Positions 2,108 through 36,691 of a stretch of 36,691 bases of DNA are shown piece after piece. The notes under the pieces were generated by a model. The model did no database searches. It was not told where the DNA came from and saw only the letters and a list, made by a program, of their open reading frames with translations. Numbering within the stretch: the first letter of the stretch is position 1; each line of letters starts with the position of its first letter. Source of the DNA: a virus; the IMG/VR virus record IMGVR_UViG_3300045988_165663, positions 1 through 36,691 of that record; one strand, 5' to 3'. The translations under genes were made by a program, and so were the position numbers.

Positions 2108-2190
2108 ATAATTCTATAATCAAATATTATTTTAAGCTTCTTTTAAAGTATAAATAATTATTATACAGGCAACAAAATAAAGGAGTTTAT

Positions 2191-3629: not shown

Positions 3630-3771
3630 CAAAATACTACGCAGGGGTAGAAAATGGGATGGCTATACATATTTAATATGTAGATGGTGCATGTTTAACA
3701 TGTATCCTTTGCAAGATTTAGTTTTCTTTAAGTAAATATTACATATAATTAAGCATTACTACATTCTAGTA

Positions 3772-3819
3772 AGCGGGTTCTACAAAGGCTTGCGAGTGCC
3801 TGCTACCAGCCCGCTTTTT
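3772..3819 (+). terminator. rho-independent terminator-like hairpin (AAGCGGG...CCCGCTT + TTTTT)
   Basis: GC-rich stem 3772..3778 / 3808..3814 followed by a T5 run, downstream of the KilA-N gene. The loop is long (about 30 nt) and contains an internal GGC/GCC stem. Confidence 0.45.
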
Positions 3820-3832
3820 AGAGTGTAGATTT

Positions 3833-4234
3833 ATGGTAGTGAAACTCGCAACTTCACTTACTACTACACTACTTCTTTTTACACGCGGAAAGATTTTTAC
3901 AATGTATAACTTAATTCAAAATACACTAGGAGATACTAGCTTTGTTATGCTAAACAAGGCAGTTATTAAGGAATTAGGATTGCACGAAGCAGTAGTGCTA
4001 GGCTTTTTTGCAGATAGATGGGCTTATTTTGAACACGCGGATTTTTACTACATGATACATCAAGTATCAAACGATACCGGCTTAAGTGAGAGAGAATGCA
4101 GAAACATTATCAGCAAGCTAGTAGATAAAGGCATTTTAGTTAAGACGGGGTTTAGAGGCGCGCCTCCTAAGCAATTTTACAATCTTAACAAAGATGCGCT
4201 TATTAAGTATGAGGGGGCTTGGCATGTTGAATAA
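3833..4234 (+). CDS. winged-helix protein paralogous to the N-terminal domain of the replication protein (alternative start ATG 3902)
   Basis: VIKELGLHEAVVLGFF...ISKLVDKGILVKTGF aligns with VAKRLGIVEAVLLHNI...LKQLVDDGWLIKDNF of the 4273 gene. Confidence 0.5.
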   Translation: MVVKLATSLTTTLLLFTRGKIFTMYNLIQNTLGDTSFVMLNKAVIKELGLHEAVVLGFFADRWAYFEHADFYYMIHQVSNDTGLSERECRNIISKLVDKGILVKTGFRGAPPKQFYNLNKDALIKYEGAWHVE

Positions 4235-4272: not shown

Positions 4273-5226
4273 ATGAGCTATCACATGTTTAATACACAAG
4301 TAGCCAAAAGATTGGGGATAGTGGAAGCAGTTTTGCTACACAATATCCAGTTTTGGATAGATAAAAATAGAGTGAATGAGAAGCACTTTTACAAGGGCAG
4401 ATATTGGACTTATAACTCTGCAAAGGCATTTTCAGAATTATTCGAGTATTTATCAGACAGACAAATAAGCAGGGCATTGAAGCAATTGGTAGATGATGGG
4501 TGGCTTATTAAAGACAATTTTAATACTAACCCATTTGACAGAACTAATTGGTATGCCTTAACCGATAAATACTACAACGAATTTATGAGTCAGAATGGAG
4601 TAGAGAATAGTTGCGAACCGATACACAAAACAAAGGACGCCGATTTGCCAAAAATGGTAAATGGTAAAACAAAAAGTGGCAATTCTTATATAGATACAGA
4701 TATTAAACCAGATATTAAAAGAGCAGATATAAACACAAATATAAACACAGATTCTCACGCGAAAACACAAAAAGACATAGCAGATTCTTTGTTTGGTTTT
4801 TTTGGTTTTGAAAGTGAAAATTCAGTTTCTGCCTCTAAAGCAAAAGAGAAACAAGACGACTTAGAAAGCTTAGAGAATGAATTTAATCAGATTTGGGAGA
4901 TATATCCAAAAAAGCAAGATAAACAAGCAGCGCTTAATAGCTATATAAAAGCCAGAAAGGGGTCAAAAATCGCTTTAAATAGTAGAGGTAATACCAAAGT
5001 AGCCTCTCAATCATTTGAAACGATTTTAAAGGGCGTTAGAAACTATTTAAGAGCTAATAGAGGAGTCGAGATTAAGTTTATTAAGCACTTAAGCACATTT
5101 CTTAATCAGCAGGCATATTTGGATTTTCAAGGTGAGGTTAATTTAAATCGGCGCGTTGGAGTTGTAGATAACCACGAGGACTATATAAACGCGGATAAGA
5201 GCATATATATCCCCAAACCTAAATAA
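4273..5226 (+). CDS. replication initiation / replisome-organiser protein (N-terminal wHTH, DnaD-like)
   Basis: wHTH N-domain, position immediately upstream of the DnaC-like loader, and internal iteron-like repeats at 4680..4760. Confidence 0.55.
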   Translation: MSYHMFNTQVAKRLGIVEAVLLHNIQFWIDKNRVNEKHFYKGRYWTYNSAKAFSELFEYLSDRQISRALKQLVDDGWLIKDNFNTNPFDRTNWYALTDKYYNEFMSQNGVENSCEPIHKTKDADLPKMVNGKTKSGNSYIDTDIKPDIKRADINTNINTDSHAKTQKDIADSLFGFFGFESENSVSASKAKEKQDDLESLENEFNQIWEIYPKKQDKQAALNSYIKARKGSKIALNSRGNTKVASQSFETILKGVRNYLRANRGVEIKFIKHLSTFLNQQAYLDFQGEVNLNRRVGVVDNHEDYINADKSIYIPKPK

Positions 5227-5288: not shown

Positions 5289-5555
5289 ATGGCATTTCAT
5301 AGAGATGGATTTACCGGTATCAAAAAGATTTATCGCGACAATGGCAGGTTATATTGTGAGGTAGAGTGTAAAGATGGAAAATTTAACGGCATCTACAAGG
5401 TTTATTATGAGAACAGAAAGCTAAGCCGTTTTTATTTGTATAAAGATGGCTTAAGGCATGGGACTTGTAGGGATTATGATGCCAAAGAGAGGCTAATTAG
5501 AGAGAGAGTATATCAAGATGGAGTCTTAATAAGTCAAAGGGATATTGTATGGTAA
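5289..5555 (+). CDS. MORN-repeat (YwqK-like) protein, paralogue 2
   Basis: IYRDNGRLYCEVECKDGKFNGIYKVYYENRKL...YKDGLRHGTCRDYD repeats. Confidence 0.6.
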   Translation: MAFHRDGFTGIKKIYRDNGRLYCEVECKDGKFNGIYKVYYENRKLSRFYLYKDGLRHGTCRDYDAKERLIRERVYQDGVLISQRDIVW

Positions 5556-6247
5556 AGGTAGCAGAAGTAGCAAAGGCTTCAGAAGTAACGACGCTAAAAT
5601 GCCAAAAGCATGGTATAGAGTTTCAGGGTAGGCTATTGCTAAATAGAATCAAAATCGGTTGTCCTAAATGCAGGGAAGAGGACGAGAGAAAAATAAGAGA
5701 GAGGGAGGAGGCTAAAATCAAAGCAAAAAACGAGGAGTTGCAACGATTTAAGGATTTTAGGATTAAGCATAGCGGTTTGCCTAAAAAGCTAATAGAAACA
5801 AAAGCTAAATACACGCAGAATTTCAGGCGGTTTTCAGAGCACTTAATAGAGCTAAAAAATAATCTCTTTCTTTGTGGTGGTATAGGAACTGGTAAGACTA
5901 TGTTTTGTGCAGAGCTTATTAAGAGAAACACAGAGAAGTATCCCATGTATTTTTTGGCATGCGATTTAGCCTATTTATCAAACACAAAGAAGCAGGATTT
6001 TATAAAGAGCCTAGATATATGCGAGCTTTTTATCCTTGATGAGATTAGCGATATAGGCTTAATTGATGAGAGCTTTTTTAATCTTGTAATAGATAAGCTA
6101 TACAATCAAGATTGTATTATTGTGCTTAGTGGCAATGTGAAAAATGATTATTTAAACTCTTTAAGCCTTAAGGTGTTGTCAAGGCTAAACACTAACGGCT
6201 TAAAAGTATGCGAGTTTAATGGAAACGATTTAAGGGTTAAAAAATAA
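5549..6247 (+). CDS. DnaC/IstB-like AAA+ helicase-loader ATPase with N-terminal Zn-ribbon
   Basis: Walker A LCGGIGTGKTMF, Walker B ELFILDEISD, CxxH...CPKC near the N-terminus. ATG overlaps the upstream stop. Confidence 0.8.
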   Translation: MVKVAEVAKASEVTTLKCQKHGIEFQGRLLLNRIKIGCPKCREEDERKIREREEAKIKAKNEELQRFKDFRIKHSGLPKKLIETKAKYTQNFRRFSEHLIELKNNLFLCGGIGTGKTMFCAELIKRNTEKYPMYFLACDLAYLSNTKKQDFIKSLDICELFILDEISDIGLIDESFFNLVIDKLYNQDCIIVLSGNVKNDYLNSLSLKVLSRLNTNGLKVCEFNGNDLRVKK

Positions 6248-6765
6248 TGGAATCTGGACAATTCTTTTTATCCGCGCTAGAAATAGAATCGCTGGTCTCT
6301 TATTTTTATAGATTGTTTGATAACAATAAAGACACGCAAGACTATATTTACACTTGCGAAAAGCCCGCTACAAAACAAGATGTAACGATAAGATTTAAAG
6401 ATGGCATCTTAAGCGTGTGGCTTAATGAGAATGGTAACCCCGCCTCTTTATTGTCAGAGTTTGATACAAAAGAGCTTATTTTAACAATACATGCCGGCGG
6501 GATAACCGATACATTAAGACAATCTATTTTCTCTCAATCTATAAGAGGGTGTATCGAACAAGCAATACTAAAGAAATATGGCTACAAGGTTTATTTTGCA
6601 AGGAATCAAGTCAAAAGACGCGATGTTGTATATTGCCAGTGTAGCATCTTGAACGATAAAGGTGGCTTTGTTATAAAGAAATTCAGAATCTATCCAACAT
6701 CCCCGCTTTACTTTAGGTTTGACTTAAAGAAACTCACTATAGAAAATTTACACGAAAACATATAA
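6247..6765 (+). CDS. hypothetical protein (172 aa)
   Basis: ATGA overlap with the DnaC-like gene (translationally coupled). No motif recognised. Confidence 0.5.
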   Translation: MESGQFFLSALEIESLVSYFYRLFDNNKDTQDYIYTCEKPATKQDVTIRFKDGILSVWLNENGNPASLLSEFDTKELILTIHAGGITDTLRQSIFSQSIRGCIEQAILKKYGYKVYFARNQVKRRDVVYCQCSILNDKGGFVIKKFRIYPTSPLYFRFDLKKLTIENLHENI

Positions 6766-6828
6766 TTAAATATTATTTAAGAATAAATAGTTATAATTAC
6801 ATCGCAATTAAATATAAAGGAGCTAAAA
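6766..6828 (+). promoter_or_regulatory. promoter/RBS cassette, near-consensus copy (TTAAGAATAAATAGTTATAATTACA; TATAAT 6792..6797)
   Basis: Almost identical over about 40 bp to the copy at 12068..12130. Confidence 0.55.
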
Positions 6829-7143
6829 ATGGAAATTTTAGAAAAAATTGCAGAAAAGGTAAATGGGAAGGTTTGGATTAAGCATGGCAAGCAAAGAATT
6901 TATTTTAAAACTGATAAATCCGCTAGCGCTTACCTTGATTATGAAGTCATGCCAAAAAGTGATAATGGTGCAGAAGCTTTAAACAATTCAAGTTTAAAGG
7001 TTTTTAGCGATTGTCAATCACAAAGCGTCGCTTGGAATGTAAATCGTGCCAAACAGATTAAATTTGAAATTATTAGAAAATTAAATGCGTTGCTTGGTTT
7101 GAATTTGGATTTGCCTAAAAAATGGCAAGAAGTTATTTTGTAA
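6829..7143 (+). CDS. hypothetical protein (104 aa)
   Basis: ORF with consensus cassette and RBS upstream. Confidence 0.5.
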   Translation: MEILEKIAEKVNGKVWIKHGKQRIYFKTDKSASAYLDYEVMPKSDNGAEALNNSSLKVFSDCQSQSVAWNVNRAKQIKFEIIRKLNALLGLNLDLPKKWQEVIL

Positions 7144-7156
7144 GAGGGGTTGAATC

Positions 7157-7483
7157 ATGAGAAAGCTTAACCTAAAGCAACAAGTTATAAACGAATATTA
7201 TGCCAGCGGTCAGATTATGAACATATGCGAATATGTGAATAATAAAAAAAATGGCTGGGATATTTGGTTTCATGAAAACGGCAATAAATGGATAGAAGCA
7301 GAATATAAAGACGATATACAACACGGCTTAGAGAGATACTACGACAACCAAGGGATTATAATATATGAGAGGCCATATAAAAACGATGAGATAGATGGGA
7401 CAGAGCGGTGGTTTGATGAGTTTGGAAATGTAATAAAAGAATATGAGTATAGAGATTCTGTCCGGCAATTAAGCAAAGGTTAA
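7157..7483 (+). CDS. MORN-repeat (YwqK-like) protein, paralogue 3
   Basis: WFHENGNKWIEAEYKDDIQHGLERYYDNQGIIIYERPYKNDEIDGTERWFDEFGNV is a textbook MORN variant repeat. Confidence 0.65.
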   Translation: MRKLNLKQQVINEYYASGQIMNICEYVNNKKNGWDIWFHENGNKWIEAEYKDDIQHGLERYYDNQGIIIYERPYKNDEIDGTERWFDEFGNVIKEYEYRDSVRQLSKG

Positions 7484-7530: not shown

Positions 7531-8319
7531 ATGGAAAAACTTAGTTTAACACAAGAGGATTACAGGGCTTATCCAGCATTAAGCACTAGCGATATTAAGC
7601 AAGTGCTAGATAATCCTTACAAGTTTAGAATCGGCTTTAAGACAGAGGAAACTCCAGCAATGAAGCTAGGTAGCTTGGTGCATACCCTTGTATTAGAGCC
7701 TTCAGAGTTTAATAAAACCTATGCAATAGCGCCCATCGCGGATAAACGCACAAAAGAGGGCAAATCAATATGGGCGGAGTTTTCAGAAGCAAATCAAGAC
7801 AAAATCATTATAGATTCTGCCATGTATGAAACCGCTAAAGGAATGCTACATAGCTTAAAAACAAGCGGGGTTTTTGAGAGATACTTTACACAAGGCGAGG
7901 CAGAGTCTAGCTACATAGGCGAGGCTTTAGGTGCAAAAATAAAGGTGCGTCCGGATTTCTTTAATCTTGAAAAAAACCTTATAGTGGATTTGAAATGCGT
8001 TAGTAATGCCAGTGCAAAGGGATTTCAAAGACTATGCGCTAACCTTAGATATTACATACAAGCCTATTTGTATATGAAAATCACGGGTGCTAAGCAGTTT
8101 ATCTTTGTGGCTATTGAAACCAAAGAACCTTACACAATAGGCATTTATGAGTTGGATTACATAGCCTTAGAATTAGCAGAAGCAGAGGTTAAAAAAGCCT
8201 TGCAGATAATAAGCGATATGGACGAGCTAGACAATATTATAAACGTGTATGGCTACCAGAGCATAGAGCCGGTTATGTTGGCACTCCCAAACTATGTTTT
8301 TTATGATAGCGAGGCATAA
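7531..8319 (+). CDS. PD-(D/E)XK family exonuclease (phage recombination exonuclease, YqaJ/Cas4-like fold)
   Basis: RPDFF...LIVDLKCV (D...D-x-K) motif plus a QAYLY segment. Located upstream of the annealase and SSB genes. Confidence 0.65.
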   Translation: MEKLSLTQEDYRAYPALSTSDIKQVLDNPYKFRIGFKTEETPAMKLGSLVHTLVLEPSEFNKTYAIAPIADKRTKEGKSIWAEFSEANQDKIIIDSAMYETAKGMLHSLKTSGVFERYFTQGEAESSYIGEALGAKIKVRPDFFNLEKNLIVDLKCVSNASAKGFQRLCANLRYYIQAYLYMKITGAKQFIFVAIETKEPYTIGIYELDYIALELAEAEVKKALQIISDMDELDNIINVYGYQSIEPVMLALPNYVFYDSEA

Positions 8320-8320
8320 C

Positions 8321-8881
8321 ATGGGAGGCGTGAAAAAGGTTAAGGGCTTTTGGGTAGATAAGAATAACAATTGCTGGGATTCTTTAATCTACACAAAAGA
8401 GGAAGCCTTAGAGTATTCTAAGAGCTTAGAAAATTGTAGAGATTGCGTTAATTGTATCAAGTGTAAAAATTGCATATCTTGTATAAATTGTGATAATTGT
8501 ATCAATTGCAAAGAGTGCAAAGACTGCACACATTGTGATATTTGTGAAAATTGCATCTTTTGTAAAGGTTGCAGAGAGTGTCAGGATTGCTATTCTTGCA
8601 AAAATTGTAAGGTTTGCAAATCTTGTAAGTATTGCGATGATTGCAGGGCTTGTATTGATTGTGAGGATTGTAAAGAGTGTGAAAAATGCTCAGCAAGTTA
8701 TCGTTGTGCATCTTGTAAATCTTGTATAGGTTGCTTTGATTGTAATTTTTGCGATGATTGTAGTCGTTGTAAAGATTGCGGATATTGTGTATATTGCAGT
8801 GGTTGTAAAACTTGTAGAAATTGTAAGTGGTGCAAGGATTATAAAGAGCGTTTTAATATCCACTTAAGAGCAGAATCATAA
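8321..8881 (+). CDS. cysteine-triplet repeat protein: about 44 consecutive X-X-Cys units after a 45-aa unique N-terminus
   Basis: Preferred start is ATG 8321, just after the upstream stop at 8317..8319. The translation reads NCRDCVNCIKCKNCISCINCDNCINCKECKDC... with Cys at every third residue over about 135 aa. The DNA shows a 9-nt periodic TGY signal across 8432..8836. Confidence 0.6.
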   Translation: MGGVKKVKGFWVDKNNNCWDSLIYTKEEALEYSKSLENCRDCVNCIKCKNCISCINCDNCINCKECKDCTHCDICENCIFCKGCRECQDCYSCKNCKVCKSCKYCDDCRACIDCEDCKECEKCSASYRCASCKSCIGCFDCNFCDDCSRCKDCGYCVYCSGCKTCRNCKWCKDYKERFNIHLRAES

Positions 8882-8999
8882 TTAGTTTGGTGCAGATTTA
8901 AGGCATCTGCAGGAAGCGTAAAGCTAGCCATCTCTTTATACCATCGGTATTCGAGCATTGGCATTATATCAAAATTTTTCTTGATTTCAACACAAATCG

Positions 9000-9062
9000 C
9001 AATTAAGTATTTTTTAAGAAATAATTACTTATAATTACACACATATAAATAAAGGAGCTTAT
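9000..9062 (+). promoter_or_regulatory. promoter/RBS cassette copy (TATAAT 9030..9035)
   Basis: AATTAAGTATTTTTTAAGAAATAATTACTTATAATTACAC...ATAAAGGAGCTTATATG. Confidence 0.45.
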
Positions 9063-9692
9063 ATGGAAAAAACAATCTACAAAAAGTTAATGGAAATACA
9101 GTCGAGTTTAAAGGCTAACAAAAGCCGTTTTAATAAGTTTGGGGGCTTTTCATACAGAAGCGCAGAGGATATTTTGGAAGCAGTGAAGCCCTTGCTAAAA
9201 CAAAATGGCTTAGTGCTTGTTTGTAGTGATAGTATAGACAATGGAATCCTAACCGCTACTTATAGCTTAATTGATGTGGATACCGGCGAATCGGTTACTA
9301 ATAGCGCAGTGGCTATTGTAGGCGAGCATAAAGGTATGAGTGCAGAGCAGAACACGGGGTGCGCTAGTAGCTATGCAAGGAAATACGCACTTAATGGCTT
9401 GTTTGCTATCGATGATAGCAGTGCAGACCCGGATTCTATGCCAGCAGAAAAAGAAGCTAAGCCTATGCCAGCAGAAAAATCTAAAGCAAAGAGCGAGCTA
9501 TTGGAAGCTAAAAAGCTACTAATGAAAGCCTTTAATGATGCCGGTGTAAAAAACAATAACGATATTAAGGAAATCTTGGAGTCAATCAAACTAGATACAA
9601 ACAATCCGGAAACAATAAAGGAATTTTTAAGTTTAAACCATAGAGAGATTATCCGAGAAAACATGAGAAAAATTGCAGAGAAGGTATTTTAA
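9063..9692 (+). CDS. single-strand annealing protein, Erf-like
   Basis: N-terminal KLMEIQSSL...FSYRSAEDILEAVKPLLKQNGL and central GCASSYARKYALNGLFAIDD resemble Erf-family SSAPs. Sits in an exonuclease-SSAP-SSB gene order. Confidence 0.55.
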   Translation: MEKTIYKKLMEIQSSLKANKSRFNKFGGFSYRSAEDILEAVKPLLKQNGLVLVCSDSIDNGILTATYSLIDVDTGESVTNSAVAIVGEHKGMSAEQNTGCASSYARKYALNGLFAIDDSSADPDSMPAEKEAKPMPAEKSKAKSELLEAKKLLMKAFNDAGVKNNNDIKEILESIKLDTNNPETIKEFLSLNHREIIRENMRKIAEKVF

Positions 9693-9707: not shown

Positions 9708-10169
9708 ATGCTTAATAATCTATCAATCTTAGGACGCGTTACAAAACCGCTAGAATTAAGGTATTTGCAGAATGGAACAGCGGTGCTAAATTTCGATATA
9801 GCAAACTCTCTCAAGGTAAAAGATAGCGAGCCAGTTGTTACATATCTTAGGTGCGTGTGCTATGGTAGAGGTGCAGAGGTTATTAATCAGTTTGTAGGAA
9901 AAGGGGATAGAGTGCTTTTGCAAGGGGAGTTAAGGCAAAATAGCTACAAAGACTCTACTGGTGCTACAAAGACTTATCACTACTTGCAAGTGAATAATTT
10001 TGACTTTATAGAATTTAAGAACAAAAAACAAACACAAAATCCAGAAGCAACACAACAAGCACAAGGTAAGCAAGGGGAGAGCATTATGGGATATGTTAAA
10101 GATGCCATGAAACCAAAAACCCAGAAAACAATAGACTTTGAAATATCAGACGATGATATACCATTTTAA
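9708..10169 (+). CDS. ssb: single-stranded DNA-binding protein
   Basis: OB-fold N-terminus (LSILGRVTKPLELRYLQNGTAVLNFDIA), Gln/Gly-rich linker and acidic C-terminal tail DDDIPF. Confidence 0.9.
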   Translation: MLNNLSILGRVTKPLELRYLQNGTAVLNFDIANSLKVKDSEPVVTYLRCVCYGRGAEVINQFVGKGDRVLLQGELRQNSYKDSTGATKTYHYLQVNNFDFIEFKNKKQTQNPEATQQAQGKQGESIMGYVKDAMKPKTQKTIDFEISDDDIPF

Positions 10170-10177
10170 AAGGAGTA

Positions 10178-10438
10178 TTGATGGAATTTAAGTTTAAAGC
10201 ACACAAACAATATAGTAGAAAAGATGTAGCTAAAGCCTTTAATAAGACTATTTACAATATAGACACACAATCCAGAAAATATAAAGCAAACGGGGGCAGA
10301 AAAGGGCTTTTAAATAGTAACCAGCAAGTGCCTTTCGTGGTATTTGCAAGCAGAATAATAAGAAACACGCCAGAGGAGTTTTGGGGCTTTTTCTTAGATG
10401 ATAACAACTTTACAAACTTTGATATTGTTAAGGATTAA
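10178..10438 (+). CDS. hypothetical protein (86 aa)
   Basis: ORF with RBS AAAGGAG. Confidence 0.45.
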   Translation: MMEFKFKAHKQYSRKDVAKAFNKTIYNIDTQSRKYKANGGRKGLLNSNQQVPFVVFASRIIRNTPEEFWGFFLDDNNFTNFDIVKD

Positions 10439-10442
10439 TGGC

Positions 10443-10682
10443 TTGAAATATATTCTTTTGCTTATGTGCGTGGTTGTGCTTGGTGGGTGCTTTAGTACTA
10501 AAGAGAGGGTAGTGTATATCCCCCAAAGATGCGATATAATCTACCCAGCTTATCCATTGCCTAGAGGCAATGCAGTAGAAAACCTTAAAGAGCTTGCTAT
10601 TTACACAGAGAAGCTAGAATGCTCCTTAGATTTTTGCATAAACGGCGAGAATCTTATACCAAATTGCAAGATTGAGAGGTAA
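10443..10682 (+). CDS. lipoprotein (TTG start; signal MKYILLLMCVVVLGGC, lipobox LGG-C)
   Basis: In-frame TTG 10443 lies 8 nt after AAGGA. Classic lipoprotein signal peptide with four further Cys. Candidate o-spanin or superinfection-exclusion lipoprotein. Confidence 0.45.
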   Translation: MKYILLLMCVVVLGGCFSTKERVVYIPQRCDIIYPAYPLPRGNAVENLKELAIYTEKLECSLDFCINGENLIPNCKIER

Positions 10683-10692
10683 AGGGTTGTTA

Positions 10693-10854
10693 ATGCTTAA
10701 GCGAATGTTTTTTTATTTCAGATGGTTTTTAATTGGCAAAAATCATTGCATGGTTAGCGATGAAATGAAGTGCTTGTTTTGGGTGTTTCACAAGACTCTT
10801 TGGTGTGCGATTAGTTTTTCTTTGTGTTTTACTTTCTACATGATTTTTTTATAA
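10693..10854 (+). CDS. small aromatic/hydrophobic protein (possible membrane peptide)
   Basis: ORF-track ORF 10672..10854, trimmed to ATG 10693 (MLKRMFFYFRWFLIG...). Weak call. Confidence 0.25.
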   Translation: MLKRMFFYFRWFLIGKNHCMVSDEMKCLFWVFHKTLWCAISFSLCFTFYMIFL

Positions 10855-10864
10855 GTTTCTAGGA

Positions 10865-10873
10865 GGGGGGGGG
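10865..10873 (+). repeat. poly-G (G9) forming the RBS of the 10880 membrane-protein gene
   Basis: aggaGGGGGGGGGtgtgtaTTG read directly. The TTG start lies 6 nt downstream. Confidence 0.8.
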
Positions 10874-10879
10874 TGTGTA

Positions 10880-11176
10880 TTGACTCAACATGAAATAGAG
10901 CAGCTTTTAAGCCTAATACCCATCTTTTTGATTGGAATCTTGGTTGGAATTTCTAGCTATTTAACGCAGGAAACAGAAGCAAAAAAGACTTTCAAATATC
11001 TATTAAAGCAAATATTGCTTAGCGTATCTTTATGCTTAATTGTATTTAGCTTGCTTAGCATTTCAGAGTTGCCGTATCTTGCAAAAATAGGAATATCATG
11101 CGCCTTTGGATTCTTTGGAATAGACAAAGCCTTAGATATAGTTAAAAATATCCTTAGCCTAAAGGGTGGCAAGTGA
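10880..11176 (+). CDS. membrane protein, 2-3 TM (holin-like candidate)
   Basis: TTG start. Hydrophobic segments LSLIPIFLIGILVGISSYL, ILLSVSLCLIVFSLLSI and ISCAFGFFGI. Confidence 0.5.
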   Translation: MTQHEIEQLLSLIPIFLIGILVGISSYLTQETEAKKTFKYLLKQILLSVSLCLIVFSLLSISELPYLAKIGISCAFGFFGIDKALDIVKNILSLKGGK

Positions 11177-11688: not shown

Positions 11689-12072
11689 TTGAGAGGTTTT
11701 AATAAGTTTAGAAACATAAAGATAAATAATGCCACTTTTGGCAAATTCGATTCTACATTGGAATACAACACTTTTTTGTATCTCCTAGCACTACAACAAC
11801 ACGGGAAAATATCAGAGTTAAAAAGACAAGTAGCAATCGATTTAACTCCGCTAAAGCAAAAGCATAAGGTTAAGTATGTATGCGATTTTCTCTATAAAGA
11901 CAAGGAACGCGGGTTAATTATTGCAGACGCTAAAGGTATGTTAAGGCCAGAGTATAGAGTTAAGAGAGAGTGGTTGTTATACCAGTTTAAGGGATTTGTT
12001 TTTATTGAATTCTACAAAGAGAAAATAAAAGAGTATCTGCCATCAGGGAGTATTGATATTTTTAGTAATTAA
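11689..12072 (+). CDS. DUF1064-like phage protein (predicted restriction-endonuclease-like fold)
   Basis: FDSTLEYNTFLYLLALQQHGKISELKRQVAIDLTP...VKYVCDFLYKDKERGLIIADAKG matches the pattern recalled for DUF1064 phage proteins. TTG start with GGGGG RBS. Confidence 0.5.
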   Translation: MRGFNKFRNIKINNATFGKFDSTLEYNTFLYLLALQQHGKISELKRQVAIDLTPLKQKHKVKYVCDFLYKDKERGLIIADAKGMLRPEYRVKREWLLYQFKGFVFIEFYKEKIKEYLPSGSIDIFSN

Positions 12073-12130
12073 GTATTATTTAAGAATAAATAGTTATAAT
12101 TACAGCGTAAATTTAAATAAAGGAGCTAGA
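12068..12130 (+). promoter_or_regulatory. promoter/RBS cassette, near-consensus copy (TATAAT 12095..12100)
   Basis: TAATTAAGTATTATTTAAGAATAAATAGTTATAATTACAGCG...ATAAAGGAGCTAGAATG. Confidence 0.55.
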
Positions 12131-12874
12131 ATGAAAAGAGAGATAGAATATATCTATGGGGATAAAGACAATAATATACTAAGACAACGCGTTTCTAAGT
12201 TAGGCAATATAAGACACGGGCTTACGATATGTTATTACAATGCGAGAACCCCTTGCAATATAAGACACGGGCTTACGATATGTTATTACAATGTGAGAAC
12301 CCCTTATCGCAAGATTCTTTATAAGTTTGGCAAGAGGGTTGCAGAATTATTCTTGTTTGAGAATAGCAAAGGCGATATTGTAAAGTCTAAGACAAACTCT
12401 TTTTCTGAATTAGTCAAAGAGGGCAGAAAAACCATATTAAAGGAATGGCAAGCAACAAAAAGAGGGGTGTTTTTAAAATCTGAAGCAGAAATAAAGAATG
12501 GTGTTTTGCATGGCAAAAAAGTCGTTTATGATTCTGATGGCTGGGTTAGTCAAATTATGCAATATAGAGATGGTAAGCTTGAGGGCGCGTCTTATTCTTA
12601 CAACAAAGATGCTGATATTGTAACCGAGATAAATTATAAAAATGATGTTAGACACGGCGAGGCTTTTCTTGTTGGAAGCTCCATGTTTGGCGAGGGCGCG
12701 CTTACAAAAGGTGTGCGAGTTTTAAGCGATAAATCCACTAGTAATAAAGAGTTTGTAGCACTATATGAAAATGGCAATGTAATCGAGTTATATTTCTCTA
12801 GGTTTGGCATAAAAATAGCAAAGGTGCATGAGAATATGATTAGTGAAATCATATTGCACGGGGATTTACCATAA
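12131..12874 (+). CDS. MORN-repeat-containing protein, paralogue 4, with an in-frame 51-bp tandem duplication near the N-terminus
   Basis: Start chosen at ATG 12131 (RBS AAGGAG) rather than the track's 12053. C-terminal KNGVLHGKKVVYDSDGWVSQIMQYRDGKLEGASYSYNKDADIVTEINYKNDVRHGEAF MORN units. Duplication NIRHGLTICYYNARTPC / NIRHGLTICYYNVRTPY. Confidence 0.6.
   Translation: MKREIEYIYGDKDNNILRQRVSKLGNIRHGLTICYYNARTPCNIRHGLTICYYNVRTPYRKILYKFGKRVAELFLFENSKGDIVKSKTNSFSELVKEGRKTILKEWQATKRGVFLKSEAEIKNGVLHGKKVVYDSDGWVSQIMQYRDGKLEGASYSYNKDADIVTEINYKNDVRHGEAFLVGSSMFGEGALTKGVRVLSDKSTSNKEFVALYENGNVIELYFSRFGIKIAKVHENMISEIILHGDLP
12206..12307 (+). repeat. 51-bp direct tandem duplication (2 copies, 2 mismatches) inside the CDS
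   Basis: AATATAAGACACGGGCTTACGATATGTTATTACAATG(C/T)GAGAACCCCTT(GC/AT) at 12206..12256 and 12257..12307. Confidence 0.85.
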
Positions 12875-12882
12875 GGGGGGGG
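12875..12882 (+). repeat. poly-G (G8) between the stop at 12872..12874 and ATG 12885
   Basis: ccaTAAGGGGGGGGttATG read directly. Confidence 0.8.
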
Positions 12883-12884
12883 TT

Positions 12885-13058
12885 ATGACATTGTATGTTA
12901 CCTATAAAGACGGCAGGCATTCTTATATTGAAACGAAAAATATGGTAGATATTAAAGATTCTAAAGGGGATAAATACGTTGTCTTGAGTGAAAAAGAGTA
13001 TAAAAAGTTGCTTGCAGAGATTGAGTATTTAAAGAAAAATCCAGTTTTATTTAATTAA
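12885..13058 (+). CDS. small hypothetical protein (57 aa)
   Basis: ATG 12885 lies right after the G8 tract. The ORF-track version (12843..) is extended upstream only through the G tract. Confidence 0.4.
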   Translation: MTLYVTYKDGRHSYIETKNMVDIKDSKGDKYVVLSEKEYKKLLAEIEYLKKNPVLFN

Positions 13059-13113: not shown

Positions 13114-13410
13114 GTGCAAGAGGTTAAGGAAGCATTAAAGAATATCTTTATGGGTATAGCGCTAGGCATTGTGATGGCAGGATTCGTGTTATCCATTATT
13201 GAAGGACGGCTATTGCTGGCATCGAGAGAGAATTACGGCTTAATATCTTTTTATATATTTGTGCTAATTACTACATTGTCAATTTTTGTTTATCTCTTTA
13301 AAGATGGGATAAACAACACTACTTTAGCAATAGGCATTCTAAGCGCAATTGGGTTTGTAATAAGCGAGATTCTTATATCCCTTGACTTAGTGCTAGCTTT
13401 TTCATTTTAA
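13114..13410 (+). CDS. membrane protein, 3 TM (holin / superinfection-exclusion candidate)
   Basis: GTG start. Hydrophobic helices GIALGIVMAGFVLSII, LISFYIFVLITTLSIFVYLF and LAIGILSAIGFVISEILI. Confidence 0.5.
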   Translation: MQEVKEALKNIFMGIALGIVMAGFVLSIIEGRLLLASRENYGLISFYIFVLITTLSIFVYLFKDGINNTTLAIGILSAIGFVISEILISLDLVLAFSF

Positions 13411-13418
13411 GGGGTGCA

Positions 13419-13619
13419 GTGATGGCAATGTTTGTATGGTTTTTAGTGCTAACAAGTGCCAGCATTTATGCGCTTTTTGGAGTTGCTATCGAAGCAGGGA
13501 AAGAATCTTGCTTTAAGGTTAAGTGGTATTGGTGGCTAATTGTAGGAGGGCTATGTATGCTCTTTTTATGCTTGGATATTTATTTGCTATATAAGACTTT
13601 TAATGCTTTAAGGGCCTAA
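13419..13619 (+). CDS. membrane protein, 2 TM
   Basis: FVWFLVLTSASIYALFGVAI and WWLIVGGLCMLFLCLDIYLL. Confidence 0.45.
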   Translation: MMAMFVWFLVLTSASIYALFGVAIEAGKESCFKVKWYWWLIVGGLCMLFLCLDIYLLYKTFNALRA

Positions 13620-13622
13620 AGA

Positions 13623-14909
13623 ATGAGTGTAGGAAAGCAATTAAGCTTATTTGACTTTATCGAAAACCCTTTTGGTGTGATAGATACTAATCAAACCACT
13701 AACACAGATTCTATTAAAAACCTTAATGCTTGCATCCCTTACAAAGGAAGCAAGAGAAAGATTAGCCACTTGATACTACAAGAGCTAAGAAACCATGCTC
13801 CACAAGCGAAATATTTTTATGATATGTTTGGCGGTGGTGGTGCAATGGCTTTAAACGCGCATTTTAACGGATACAAGACTCACTACAATGAGCTAGATAT
13901 AGACGTGTATGTGTATATGAAGTTTCTAATATCCCGGCTACAAAATAAAAAAGGTAAATATGGGATTTTGCCTGATGAGTGGTATAGGTTTATTACAAAG
14001 GCAGAATTTGACAAGATTAAGGCAGACAAAACGCCGAGCGCATATAGAAGCTTTGTTTTGCTTAATTACAGCTTTGCTAATGATTGGAATACCTACTTTT
14101 GCAATAAAGAAAAAGAGCTATTCAAACAAAAAGGGCATTATCTATTGCTAGACAACGACAAAGAGTGCGCAGAGTGGTGGGATAATCACTTTAAAGAGAA
14201 TGGAAGCGTAGCAGGCATATATAATCATTTGCATAGTGAGATATATCCTAGCCTTAACTGGAGAGAGCGGAGAGCTTATTTTGTGAATATAACCCTTAAG
14301 ATAGAAGCAATAAGAGTTGCAGGGATAGCGTATTTATTTCAAAAGAAAAGCAACGCGGATACATACAAGGCAGTTAAGGATATATCACAAAAAGACTTAT
14401 GCAGGCTTATAGATAAACATAATCCGGATTTACCTAAGAAAAACTACAAAGGAACACAAGGCAAAGGATTAACCGAGCTTAAGCAATTACAGCGATTAGA
14501 GCAATTACAGCAATTACAGCAATTACAGCAATTACAGCAATTACAGCAATTAGAGCGATTACAGCAATTAGAGCGATTAGAGCTAATCACACACACGAAT
14601 CTGGATTATGCAGAAGTAAAAATAAGCACTCCTCCACAAGACACAATCATATATGCAGACCCGCCTTATTCAAATACTAGCGAGTATAAATTGTGTGGAA
14701 ATAGCTTTGATTATGAGCGATTCTACCAGTGGTGTATAGACAAGGCAAAGCAAGGGTATTATGTTTTTATAAGCGAATATAATATGCCACAAGATAGGTT
14801 TAAAGAGGTATGGAGTAAGGATACTTTAGCAAATTTTAACACTATCAAAAAAGATTGTGGTGCAAGAGTAAGACCACAAAGAGTCGAGCGTCTTTTTATG
14901 GTGCGTTAG
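13623..14909 (+). CDS. DNA N6-adenine methyltransferase, Dam/D12 class (orphan), with an internal (QLQ)n repeat linker
   Basis: N-terminal motif IPYKGSKRK and a C-terminal DPPY motif (IIYADPPYSNTSEY). Between them lies LKQLQRLEQLQQLQQLQQLQQLQQLERLQQLERLEL, encoded by 9-bp tandem repeats. Confidence 0.85.
   Translation: MSVGKQLSLFDFIENPFGVIDTNQTTNTDSIKNLNACIPYKGSKRKISHLILQELRNHAPQAKYFYDMFGGGGAMALNAHFNGYKTHYNELDIDVYVYMKFLISRLQNKKGKYGILPDEWYRFITKAEFDKIKADKTPSAYRSFVLLNYSFANDWNTYFCNKEKELFKQKGHYLLLDNDKECAEWWDNHFKENGSVAGIYNHLHSEIYPSLNWRERRAYFVNITLKIEAIRVAGIAYLFQKKSNADTYKAVKDISQKDLCRLIDKHNPDLPKKNYKGTQGKGLTELKQLQRLEQLQQLQQLQQLQQLQQLERLQQLERLELITHTNLDYAEVKISTPPQDTIIYADPPYSNTSEYKLCGNSFDYERFYQWCIDKAKQGYYVFISEYNMPQDRFKEVWSKDTLANFNTIKKDCGARVRPQRVERLFMVR
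14483..14584 (+). repeat. 9-bp tandem repeat (CAATTACAG / CGATTAGAG), about 11 units, in frame within the methyltransferase gene
   Basis: Read directly: cagcaattacagcaattacagcaattacag... Confidence 0.85.
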
Positions 14910-19808: not shown

Positions 19809-19874
19809 TGTTAGTTTTATGTTTGTGCTATACTTTAAGTTTAAATTAATACAAGGGGGTAACAAAGGTTACTA

Positions 19875-21083
19875 ATGGAAAAGATAAGGATAGCAGACGC
19901 TAACACTTCAAAGAGAGAAAAAGACTCTAACGGCTTTTTGATTGTAAAAGACAATCCAATAGCTAAAGCAGGGGTTTTTGATTATCTTTTATCCGAGGTG
20001 TTTTCACAAGTTGAAAAAGACAAAGATAGAATCGTCCGGGTTTGTAGAGAGTTTGAAAACCTAAAGGCTAATAAAGACTCCTTTAAGGGCAAGCCAATCA
20101 AATGGGAGCATTTTTGGGTTGGCAAAGAGGGTCAAACACAAACTGCAGACGGTGCTATTTTTGGCGAGGTGAGAGCGGATGAGCCTTATCTTAAGGCAGA
20201 CCTAATCATATATAACAATGATTTGATAGCTAAAATTGAAGCCGGCGAGGTTGTGGAGTTAAGCCCTGCCTATGAAGCTAATATTGAAGCTATCGAAGGG
20301 AGTTATAATGGCGAAGGTTATTCGTATCTGCAAAAGCTAAAAGAGGTTAATCATTTAGCGGTTGTAGAAACGGGACGCAGTGGTAGCGATTTAAAAATAC
20401 AAGACAAAAAGGGGACTCTAAAAATGAAAGAAACAAAAGGTAGCTTTATCGATAAGCTTATTGCAAAGCTAAAAGATGAGGACACAACACAACAAGCGGA
20501 CTCTAGTGCAGAGGTTATAGAGAAAATCGTAGCAATTGCAGGGGGTGAGGGCAGTGATGATGAGAAGCTTTTAGCTATTATCGAAGCACTCAAGGATTAT
20601 AAAAAAGAGGGTGATGGTGCAGAGCCAAAAGATGAGCCAAAAGAGGGTGATGCAAACGATAATGCACTGGAAGTTAAAGAAAAAGACGAGGACGAGGTAG
20701 AACCAAAAGAGGGCAATATTAACCTTACTCCAGAGGCTTTAACCGAGCTAATCGAAAAAGTAACGGATTCTAAAATCAAAAAGTTACAAGACTCTATGCA
20801 CGCGGATAACCAAAAAGTAGCACAAGCTTACAAAGAGGTATCCAGTGCATTAGGAACGGGCTTTGACTTCACAAGCAAAAGCGCGAGTGATATTTACAAG
20901 TATGGCTATGAAATGCTATCAAAGCAAAAACTCCAAGATTCTATGGACGCTAAAACGGCTTTTTTAGCAATTTCAAATGCCAATGGTATTAATGTGGTTA
21001 ATAGCAATGTAAAGACAAGCGATAGCAGTGCTACAAACGAAGCTTATGCAGAGCTTGACTCTTACTTGAAACTTTATAAATAA
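19875..21083 (+). CDS. scaffold / prohead protease-like protein (DUF2213-like) with acidic low-complexity region
   Basis: Position between the MuF-like gene and the capsid gene. Central KDEPKEGDANDNALEVKEKDEDEVEPKEG acidic segment. Confidence 0.5.
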   Translation: MEKIRIADANTSKREKDSNGFLIVKDNPIAKAGVFDYLLSEVFSQVEKDKDRIVRVCREFENLKANKDSFKGKPIKWEHFWVGKEGQTQTADGAIFGEVRADEPYLKADLIIYNNDLIAKIEAGEVVELSPAYEANIEAIEGSYNGEGYSYLQKLKEVNHLAVVETGRSGSDLKIQDKKGTLKMKETKGSFIDKLIAKLKDEDTTQQADSSAEVIEKIVAIAGGEGSDDEKLLAIIEALKDYKKEGDGAEPKDEPKEGDANDNALEVKEKDEDEVEPKEGNINLTPEALTELIEKVTDSKIKKLQDSMHADNQKVAQAYKEVSSALGTGFDFTSKSASDIYKYGYEMLSKQKLQDSMDAKTAFLAISNANGINVVNSNVKTSDSSATNEAYAELDSYLKLYK

Positions 21084-36234: not shown

Positions 36235-36691
36235 ATGCCTATAACTAACGCGCCTTTTTTTAAATACGCTTTTGCACAAAACGGGGATAAGACTCCTATA
36301 CCACAAGACCAAGACCCAAAAGGTAAAGTAAGCTATGAAGTAGGCTTTGGTGGTATTTACAGCAGAGACCCGTTAGCGGACGGGGATTATGTATTAAGAC
36401 CGGATTTTAACCAGCTAATGTTTGATACAACCAACGCTATAAGGCAAATGCAAATAAACGGCGCTAACCTTTGGAGAGCAGAGGTAGCAAATAATGGTGG
36501 CTATCCAGCCGGCGCGGTTGTTTTAGTAAAAATGCAAATGAACGGGGTTATCGATAGTGGTAGCGATTTTGTACAGCACTTGAACTATTACCAGCCCTTT
36601 ATAAGCATGATAGAAGCAAACACAGACGAGCCTTTAGCAGCGACCGCTTACAAATCATGGTGGGCTTTAGATGGTAACCCGCTTTTTGGAA
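36235..36691 (+). CDS. tail fibre / receptor-binding protein, N-terminal part (continues through the circular junction into 1..607)
   Basis: ATG 36235 with RBS AAAGGA. MPITNAPFFKYAFAQNGDKTPIPQ... The last 119 bp are identical to 1..119 and the frame is continuous with ORF 8..607. Confidence 0.55.
   Translation, partial: MPITNAPFFKYAFAQNGDKTPIPQDQDPKGKVSYEVGFGGIYSRDPLADGDYVLRPDFNQLMFDTTNAIRQMQINGANLWRAEVANNGGYPAGAVVLVKMQMNGVIDSGSDFVQHLNYYQPFISMIEANTDEPLAATAYKSWWALDGNPLFG
36573..36691 (+). repeat. 119-bp terminal direct repeat identical to 1..119 (circular-genome overlap)
   Basis: acagcacttgaactattaccagccctttataagcatgatagaagc... is present at both ends. Confidence 0.95.

Follow-up and report, generated by a model that had tools for sequence, protein, structure and literature searches.

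What is the short promoter-like module that recurs in front of so many early genes of this virus: a set of promoters under one factor, a portable unit that has carried accessory genes with it, or something else? The DNA in question, hereafter the window, is the whole of IMG/VR virus record IMGVR_UViG_3300045988_165663, one circular phage contig of 36,691 bases with a G+C content of about 36%, in which all plausible genes are located on the plus strand. The module, hereafter the cassette, spans 60–70 bp with two phased TTAAG boxes, a TATAAT hexamer, a short leader and a Shine-Dalgarno (SD) site, and is present in seven good and two weak copies. The cassettes are probably strong promoter/SD units, read by the housekeeping RNA polymerase (RpoD) of the host, which double as recombination points. 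This is a familiar phage design and not a new kind of system.

The canonical pattern, AATTAAG-N6-TTAAG-N10/11-TATAAT with a downstream leader ending with ATAAAGGAGCTnnnATG, is found seven times, and degenerate copies start at 2129 and 3717 (Table 1). All copies are intergenic, lie on the coding strand and are restricted to the first 13 kb, with none in the other 23 kb, and nearly all intergenic gaps of at least 45 nt in the first 13 kb contain one, the exception being the 200-nt gap before the KilA-N gene. A regular expression for the pattern finds six exact copies, the one at 6764 having a single mismatch, and a position-weight scan gives seven sites at 34–38 bits, all on the plus strand. As the matrix was trained on these very sites the scores are circular, but an independent check is given by the next site, at 3715 with 18.2 bits, and by the rest, at 12 or less, to be compared with a top score of 17.8 and a mean maximum of 7.7 in 100 first-order Markov simulations. 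The ungapped matrix misses the 2129 copy because of a 1-nt indel. Exact TTAAG-N6-TTAAG occurs 6 times in the window against 0.48 expected, and the 31-mer TATTATTTAAGAATAAATAGTTATAATTACA is found exactly at 6771–6801 and 12074–12104 (0 matches in 100 shuffles).

The original prediction, made from the letters of the window, had described a near-identical module of about 40 bp occurring twice, and a 40-mer is indeed exact at 12066–12105 and present with 2 mismatches at 6763–6802. Of the variants that it listed, those at 714, 5224, 7482, 9000 and 13053 correspond to the canonical copies starting at 718, 5228, 7467, 9001 and 13053, and the one at 2130 to the degenerate copy at 2129 (N7, TAAAG, TATTAT); the copy before the exonuclease gene thus starts at 7467 and not at 7482. 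The TATAAT hexamer claimed for every copy is perfect in all seven canonical copies, and also in 3717–3749, but reads TATTAT at 2129. The shared ribosome-binding context holds, as AAGGAGC occurs six times on the plus strand, in all six cases directly behind a cassette, and the genes named as being served (MORN-type genes, the hypothetical at 6829, the exonuclease at 7531, ERF at 9063 and the 198-aa gene at 2191, a putative membrane protein in that prediction) agree with the gene calls.

Read from 5' to 3', the cassette consists of the distal box AATTAAG(T), six variable bases, the proximal box TTAAG (11 nt after the distal box), 10 or 11 A+T-rich bases and TATAAT, often followed by TACA; the start codon lies 26–37 nt further on, with AAAGGAG(CT) in between. 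Each of the six AAGGAGC occurrences has the form ATAAAGGAGCT and is placed 5–7 nt ahead of the start codon, while genes without a cassette have the weaker sites AAGG, AGGG or GGGG. Over the boxes, pairs of copies are on average 0.83 identical; the value falls to 0.30 for the 30 nt before the cassette and to 0.35 for the start of the coding sequence (30 nt), with 0.27–0.38 predicted from composition alone. The similarity ends at the cassette edges. The reading frames upstream of five of the seven canonical copies stop at -2 to +16 relative to the first base of the cassette, and every cassette core has stop codons in two or three frames. Folding of the seven cassettes with their flanks is no better than that of shuffled sequences (z -0.95 to +0.92), the regions 600–720 and 8875–9000 show no significant structure, and no terminator-like sites were found adjoining the cassettes or after the accessory genes. 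Accessory genes (the MORN paralogues and the hypothetical at 6829) are located directly behind cassettes and ahead of core genes, and the genes behind cassettes continue into core genes with gaps of 0–15 nt. By inference, the last copy would also serve the tightly packed late genes.

Table 1. Cassette copies in the window, with their sequence features, matrix scores and the genes located behind them.
Copy	Span	Strand	Sequence features	Score (bits)	Genes behind the copy
P718	718..789	+	AATTAAG 718-724, TTAAG 731-735, TATAAT 747-752, SD AAAGGAG ~778-784	35.8	MORN 790-1170 (Pfam), then 1302-1505, DUF5675 gene 1519-2058
Degenerate, 2129	2129..2190	+	TTAAG-N7-TAAAG-N10-TATTAT (2129-2164), then ATAAAGGAGTTTATATG		198-aa gene 2191-2787
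Degenerate, 3717	3717..3749	+	TTTAG-N6-TTAAG-N11-TATAAT; without SD	18.2	Replication-initiator genes 3833-4234 and 4273-5226 (PHROG; O-like/DnaD-like)
P5228	5228..5288	+	SD variant AAAGGGGCT	37.0	MORN-like 5289-5555 (weak Pfam match), AAA+ loader-like 5549-6247, 6247-6765
P6764	6764..6828	+	Distal box AATTAAA (one mismatch)	35.1	Hypothetical 6829-7143, MORN 7157-7483 (second behind the cassette)
P7467	7467..7530	+	Distal box overlaps the final codons of the MORN gene	34.6	DUF3799/PD-(D/E)XK exonuclease 7531-8319, Cys-rich gene 8321-8881
P9001	9001..9062	+		37.2	ERF 9063-9692, SSB 9708-10169, on via the holin gene (10880) to the DUF1064 gene 11689-12072
P12067	12067..12130	+	88% identity to P6764 over 66 nt	38.2	MORN-like 12131-12874 (weak match), 12885-13058
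P13053	13053..13113	+	Last copy; GTG start	37.0	13114-13410, 13419-13619, Dam-like methyltransferase 13623-14909, small terminase 14957

The first 13 kb encode MORN-repeat proteins, a DUF5675 protein, a KilA-N protein, two replication-initiator-like proteins, an AAA+ loader-like protein, a DUF3799/PD-(D/E)XK exonuclease, ERF, SSB, a holin and a DUF1064 protein, and constitute the early and accessory functions. They are followed by a Dam-like methyltransferase, terminase, portal and a myovirus-type structural block, in part assigned from Pfam labels on relatives. Bases 1–119 are repeated exactly at 36573–36691, and a sister contig (L209) from a separate sample, with 99.85% identity to the window, carries the name k119_...; the 119-bp terminal direct repeat is accordingly a k-mer artefact (k = 119) left by the assembler on a circular contig; a tail-fibre-like reading frame spans the circle junction, from 36236 through to 607. 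The differences between the window and L209 fall nearly all in two short patches, 7820–8085 in the exonuclease gene and 10438–10514 at the start of gene 10443, the remaining ones being two repeat-unit swaps at 14553/14562, and none is located in a cassette. This clustering is more suggestive of recombination in patches than of point mutation.

When 20 kb of the window were compared by Megablast with 50,697 phage records, no match was obtained, and the phage therefore has no close cultured relative. By protein comparison (portal, exonuclease) the nearest phages are the Campylobacter phages DA10, PC11 and PC22, with about 38% identity, and a Helicobacter prophage, and the closer relatives are gut metagenome contigs only, from pig gut wherever the source is stated. 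Searches with the capsid and exonuclease gave metagenome contigs and zero isolate genomes, no exonuclease relatives were found in IMG/VR, where the contigs that do carry the cassette motif are unrelated to the phage of the window, and the ERF protein matched a genome collection at 37–57% over many phyla, which is uninformative on the host. Rfam and tRNA scans of the window found nothing. Given that the nearest phages are those of Campylobacter and Helicobacter and that the closer relatives are only metagenomic, the host is, as judged from these sequence affinities, a member of the Campylobacterota.

The C. jejuni -35 consensus is TTTAAGTnTT (Wosten et al. 1998, quoted in PMC3824568), with TTTAAGTATT used in experiments, and reporter activity was about doubled when a weak -35 region was swapped for TTTAAGTATT; in the cj0183 promoter the spacer between -35 and -10 is 19 nt (PMC3824568). 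Mapping of C. jejuni start sites has given a gnTAnaAT box 4–8 nt upstream of the starts and no -35 box (PMC3847290), with a periodic signal centred on -7, -17, -27 and -38 (Petersen et al. 2003, Porcelli et al. 2013; PMC3847290), and a T-rich/TG -16 element occurs in some C. jejuni promoters only, in anticorrelation with a good -35 (PMC3824568). The cassette consensus ATTAAGTATT matches TTTAAGTATT in 9 of 10 positions and is spaced by 17–18 nt from TATAAT, compared with 19 in cj0183. If the last T of TATAAT is set at -7, a register that depends on the assumed start, -38 and -27 are the first positions of the two TTAAG boxes, and nothing clear is seen at -17. The cassettes and the C. jejuni RpoD promoters share a TATAAT -10 box, a TTAAGT-type element in the -35 region, short leaders and, if the assumed register holds, a 10–11-nt periodicity peaking at -27 and -38. 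They differ in that the cassettes sharpen the periodic signal into two TTAAG boxes in a fixed 11-nt register and mostly lack the T-rich/TG -16 element (G at -14 is found only in P6764 and P12067, and TGn in none), and in coming from a phage with 36% G+C whose true host is a species other than C. jejuni. A scan for TTGACA-N16-18-TATAAT misses every cassette, because the promoter is not of the E. coli type, and its σ70 matches are not enriched over shuffles. Promoters for FliA and RpoN were rejected, as neither GG-N10-GC nor TAAA-N15-CGAT is seen by inspection. Among the about 33 early-region and terminase proteins scanned, with some two dozen late-region reading frames outside the scan, there is no sigma factor or RNA polymerase gene.

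The double box is not restricted to this family. In the first 100 kb of CPX, a C. jejuni myophage of the Fletchervirus group, TTAAG-N6-TTAAG is found 25 times against 1.1 expected, all on the main coding strand, and 21 of the 25 sites have a TAnAnT-type -10-like box 6–14 nt downstream, usually with an SD and ATG or a tRNA cluster beyond. In the A+T-rich control, 50 kb of Staphylococcus phage K, it occurs once against 0.82 expected. The CPX sites are like the cassettes in the order of TTAAG-N6-TTAAG, a TAnAAT-type box, SD and ATG on the coding strand, and unlike them in usually having an extended -10 (TGn) and in lacking the shared leader, the shared SD and the AATTAAG prefix, and they give the impression of independent promoters and not of a single cassette that was copied. 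They also look like a well-defined class of Campylobacter myophage promoters in their own right, located before early and middle genes and a tRNA cluster; a limited literature search found no published description of them, although the work on phage NCTC 12673 may contain one, and the DA10 paper does not mention promoters. Many IMG/VR contigs carry several copies of the motif in family-specific versions, for example L007, L045 and L047 (...TTTAAGCTAAnnTACGGTATAAT) and L052 and L067. Only the DUF5675 protein, the holin and a methyltransferase fragment of the window have homologues in the first 100 kb of CPX, and there is consequently no regulator common to the two phages in that stretch. The simplest reading is that the upstream half of the cassette is a sharp, near-optimal form of the general Campylobacter promoter signal which would be read by the host transcription machinery.

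Related contigs were reached through exonuclease homologues, and few of them are informative. One of these (L203, 97% protein identity) shares the P7467 and P9001 cassettes with the window, from which it differs in 77 of 1193 positions of coding DNA (6.5%), in 0 of 70 in the two 35-nt cassette cores and in 2 of 56 in the leaders; the P7467 core has 0 changes in 35 and P9001 has 0 in 62. The cassettes are under stronger conservation than coding DNA. In L203 the Cys-rich gene 8321–8881 is absent, and ATCGC and then the ERF cassette come immediately after the stop of the exonuclease gene. The additional segment of the window, 8320–8995, consists of the Cys-rich repeat gene (CxxC units with a 9/27-nt period, phrog_15341), which has a distant homologue elsewhere in L200, and a 114-nt tail. 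This tail contains the best E. coli-type promoter match of the early region, TTGAAA-16-TGATATAAT from 8990 to 8963, which would be antisense to the Cys-rich gene as it is located on the minus strand.

In another relative (L204, 82%) the order is the homologue of 6247–6765, a cassette, exonuclease and ERF. Where L204 has a single cassette, the window has an extra cassette-flanked unit, P6764 with genes 6829–7483 and P7467, and a second extra unit in the window is the Cys-rich gene with P9001. In L200 (62%) cassettes precede the exonuclease and ERF genes, and at the position of P5228, after the replication gene, there is a variant cassette with a Cys-rich gene where the window has a MORN-like gene. 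The relative L199 (51%) has six copies of its own version: the promoter core AATTAAGCTAACACTAAGCAAAACATTAATATAATTACA is the same in four, the AT-rich stretch AACAATAAATAATTATAT upstream of it recurs in five, and two pairs have the leader and SD in common as well. One of the copies follows the DUF1064 gene, in the same place as P12067. Its proximal box is CTAAG, and AATTAAG is kept in the related phages. The copies are thus homogenised within genomes and different between genomes, as far as the compared sequences tell. Five contigs (L205–L208 and L218) start or end inside a cassette, which is the signature of a repeat that breaks short-read assemblies. In distant relatives (L211, L213, L215, DA10 and the Helicobacter prophage) there are zero to two copies, and the late regions of L218–L220 have zero cassettes. 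Cassette-bounded indels or replacements are seen in the L204 and L200 cases, with one counter-example in L203, among few relatives, and it is suggestive that the differences in gene content between relatives fall at cassettes.

Several of these observations weigh against cassettes that serve as host-type promoters and as recombination points. The difference from L203 at 8320–8995 is the insertion of a gene without a cassette beside one cassette, and not between two, and the coincidence of breakpoints with cassettes is only suggestive since intergenic indels are expected anyway. The closest cultured relative, DA10, has one strong copy only, and with zero to two copies in the distant relatives the reiteration is a trait of this subclade only. 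On the promoter side, the match is to the rules of C. jejuni, which may not be those of the true host, as the relatives are all from gut metagenomes; the distal TTAAGT hexamer is located 20–21 nt from TATAAT, too far for a classical contact with sigma region 4; and the TG or G at -14/-15 that is common in C. jejuni promoters is missing from most copies. The activity and strength of the putative promoters, their start sites and the polymerase contacts that would read the TTAAG boxes are deduced from sequence logic.

The distance of the distal box is also what would be expected if the two TTAAG direct repeats were the tandem-dimer site of a dedicated factor that replaces the -35 contact, with the nine sites forming one regulon. 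The factor could be the KilA-N or a winged-helix early protein of the phage, or a host activator of the response-regulator type, and the geometry fits the class II activator sites of the PhoB/OmpR type, with two direct repeats of 11-bp periodicity that end 10–11 bp upstream of the -10 box. Such a factor could also account for boxes sharper than the 'fuzzy' periodic signal of host promoters, and genome-specific uniform versions, in which AATTAAG is kept and the proximal box varies, are to be expected if sites co-evolve with a genome-specific factor. No cognate regulator for sites of this type was identified, and the same boxes are enriched in CPX without a shared regulator, the DUF5675 protein having a mostly beta model with no helix-turn-helix and no PDB match. 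The distal box is moreover the consensus from C. jejuni chromosomal promoters, which raises activity without a phage factor, and a phage-encoded factor would require that the first cassette fires before it is made. A dedicated regulator is not needed, because the upstream half matches the C. jejuni promoter signal and recurs in the unrelated CPX, and we regard the regulon as improbable. If the sites were instead DNA-level elements with no part in transcription, such as replication iterons, packaging signals or partition sites, their direct repeats with helical phasing would be iteron-like, and O-like/DnaD-like initiators are encoded beside one degenerate copy. The sites are spread unclustered over 12 kb and are all on the coding strand, with a perfect TATAAT at a fixed distance and a start codon with a strong SD 26–37 nt beyond, and genes and tRNA clusters of CPX have this architecture ahead of them, which leaves hardly any room for this explanation.

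The cassettes might also be promoters that are neither mobile nor recombinogenic, having evolved independently towards the optimum of the host, with indels nearby since intergenic DNA tolerates insertions. The invariant positions of the seven copies are mostly functional boxes, the spacers vary, the spacing is variable (10 or 11 nt between proximal box and -10, and 26–37 nt from -10 to start), and the best-resolved recent indel, the Cys-rich gene 8321–8881 compared with L203, is not flanked by two cassettes, all of which agrees with convergence. Identity is, however, also found at positions without known function, namely in the 31-nt match between P6764 and P12067, in the GCT after the SD of six copies and in the TACA after the -10 box, and this is what independent convergence cannot explain. 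Nor does convergence on one host optimum predict a uniform version in each genome, the shared AT-rich stretch, core, leader and SD of the L199 copies, or the clean contrast of cassette-genes-cassette with a single cassette in L204, and we consider it unlikely. What remains best in agreement with the anatomy, position, orientation and comparison is a set of nearly identical predicted early promoters with their ribosomal binding sites, which was one part of the original prediction; its single-factor regulon acting through the conserved upstream half was not borne out, this half being the general Campylobacter -35 and periodic signal that occurs 25 times in the unrelated CPX.

By function the closest described system is, by analogy, the promoter-early stem-loop (PeSL) cassette of T4-type phages, in which an upstream stop codon is followed by A+T-rich DNA, a strong σ70-like early promoter and an SD with start codon (PMC2839356, PMC4122927). 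PeSLs are concentrated before orphan genes in hyperplastic regions and mediate cassette-bounded indels (Arbiol et al. 2010, PMC2839356; Comeau et al. 2014, PMC4122927). Both kinds of cassette are reiterated intergenic units of about 60–100 bp which extend from an upstream stop through a host-type promoter to the SD and start, both are located in variable early regions before accessory or orphan genes, and both show cassette-gene-cassette versus single-cassette indels. Unlike PeSLs, the cassettes of the window have no stem-loop or terminator (only the degenerate copy at 3717 has a hairpin after it), so upstream transcription is not insulated; their promoter is of the Campylobacter type with paired TTAAG boxes and no TTGACA, the SD is a constant component of the cassette, and the phage has a 36.6-kb genome with a contractile-tail gene set and is not T4-type. 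Since the defining stem-loop is absent they are not PeSLs in the strict sense, but they appear to work like PeSLs at the DNA level. Morons of lambdoid phages have their own terminator and are located in late operons of prophages, and the SAS of cluster K mycobacteriophages are translation-proximal 13-mers that overlap the ribosomal binding sites of a subset of genes and have no promoter. Like these, the cassettes couple accessory genes to their own expression signals, but they are confined to the early region and include a promoter, and having no terminator of their own they are not morons. The portable moron cassette that had been proposed was therefore right in that the cassettes are located at gene-content breakpoints and are homogenised within genomes, and wrong in respect of the terminator and of one accessory insertion (8321–8881) that came without a cassette.

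In the mechanism that we favour, with the cassettes as probable RpoD promoter/SD units, each of them would have four jobs. The upstream reading frame would be stopped in the A+T-rich first bases, and a strong Campylobacter-type promoter with a perfect TATAAT would recruit the housekeeping RNA polymerase of the host, with two phased TTAAG boxes one helical turn apart (about -38 and -27) in place of an E. coli -35 and with the distal box as the C. jejuni -35 consensus. A short unstructured leader of about 20–30 nt would then lead to the strongest SD site of the genome (AAAGGAG), placed just ahead of the start codon. The seven good and two weak copies would restart transcription at each small early gene group and at the methylase/terminase/late block, and because there are no terminators between cassettes expression would be boosted cumulatively and not partitioned. 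Being 60–90 bp of near-identical DNA, the cassettes should at the same time act as homology patches on which the Erf/exonuclease/SSB system of the phage, or that of the host, could recombine them. Such recombination would give homogenisation within a genome, the alternation of cassette-genes-cassette with a single cassette, and replacement of the first gene behind a cassette. A further-reading version, which we put forward tentatively and hold to be rather doubtful, would give Campylobacterota RNA polymerase, or a host factor, a discrete and sequence-specific upstream element in the form of the TTAAG pair at about -38 and -27. This would be the sharp counterpart of the 'periodic signal' described so far in place of a -35 box, one of which phages of this clade make the fullest use, and the cassette would be an adaptor (stop, promoter, SD, start) copied and recombined by Erf/exonuclease/SSB for integron-like capture and expression of accessory genes such as those for MORN-repeat proteins.

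Some other features of the window were recorded. The degenerate 3717 copy is followed by a very stable hairpin at 3759–3828 (-36.4 kcal/mol, z -5.5, with none of 200 shuffles reaching this stability), which terminates in a U-run immediately before the replication-initiator genes and has no Rfam match. Its role could be that of a small RNA, of a leader attenuator or of part of an origin, and a promoter followed by a hairpin is also found in DA10 (L201, about 32879, minus strand) and, at 10804, in L199. Three tandem copies of the 11-nt unit TTGCTTCTCTT at 2075–2110 closely precede the degenerate 2129 cassette. The only sizeable gap of the late region, 19809–19874, holds TGTGCTATACT, which is extended -10-like, before a 402-aa gene at 19875, and may be an internal late promoter without TTAAG boxes, judging from its sequence.

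Homopolymer tracts of the type that slips in Campylobacter are located at 2874–2882 (C9, in the 200-nt A+T-rich gap before the KilA-N gene), at 10865–10873 (G9, within the ribosome site of the holin gene that starts at 10880) and at 12875–12882 (G8, within the ribosome site of gene 12885), and their lengths are equal in L209. A change in tract length would alter the spacing between SD and start, which could lead to translational phase variation. Within the gene for the Dam-like D12 methyltransferase (13623–14909), about 16 tandem 9-nt units, AGCAATTAC or AGCGATTAG, at 14455–14601 encode a Q/E-L-repeat linker; the window and L209 differ at two units, and the repeat ends contigs L206–L208, in which the homologous gene comes directly after the exonuclease. 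The MORN-like gene 12131–12874 contains an exact-frame tandem duplication of 51 nt with 98% identity at 12204–12305.

The DUF5675 protein (1519–2058) is conserved in relatives and in CPX (33% identity), with an invariant His127 and Gly-Cys138 in ...H-x10-GC(I)G..., a stretch that we take to resemble the active-site motif of L,D-transpeptidases (YkuD), so that the protein may be the missing cell-wall enzyme. As the sole non-lysis protein shared with CPX it was also considered as a possible common DNA-binding factor, but the AlphaFold model (pLDDT 74, mostly beta) gave no match in fold and sequence searches of PDB, which is uninformative on this point.

The cassettes provide a ready-made operon map, as well as candidate strong and compact promoter/RBS parts for Campylobacter-like hosts, which are poorly served with genetic tools and do not obey the promoter rules of E. 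coli. The motif TTAAG-N6-TTAAG-N10/11-TATAAT turns the vague epsilonproteobacterial 'periodic signal' into one that can be mutated and tested, and that is shared with CPX and not enriched in the Staphylococcus control. The comparative data extend the PeSL idea, in which repeated regulatory cassettes are seams for the shuffling of phage accessory genes, beyond the T4-type phages to a small phage and a terminator-free version.

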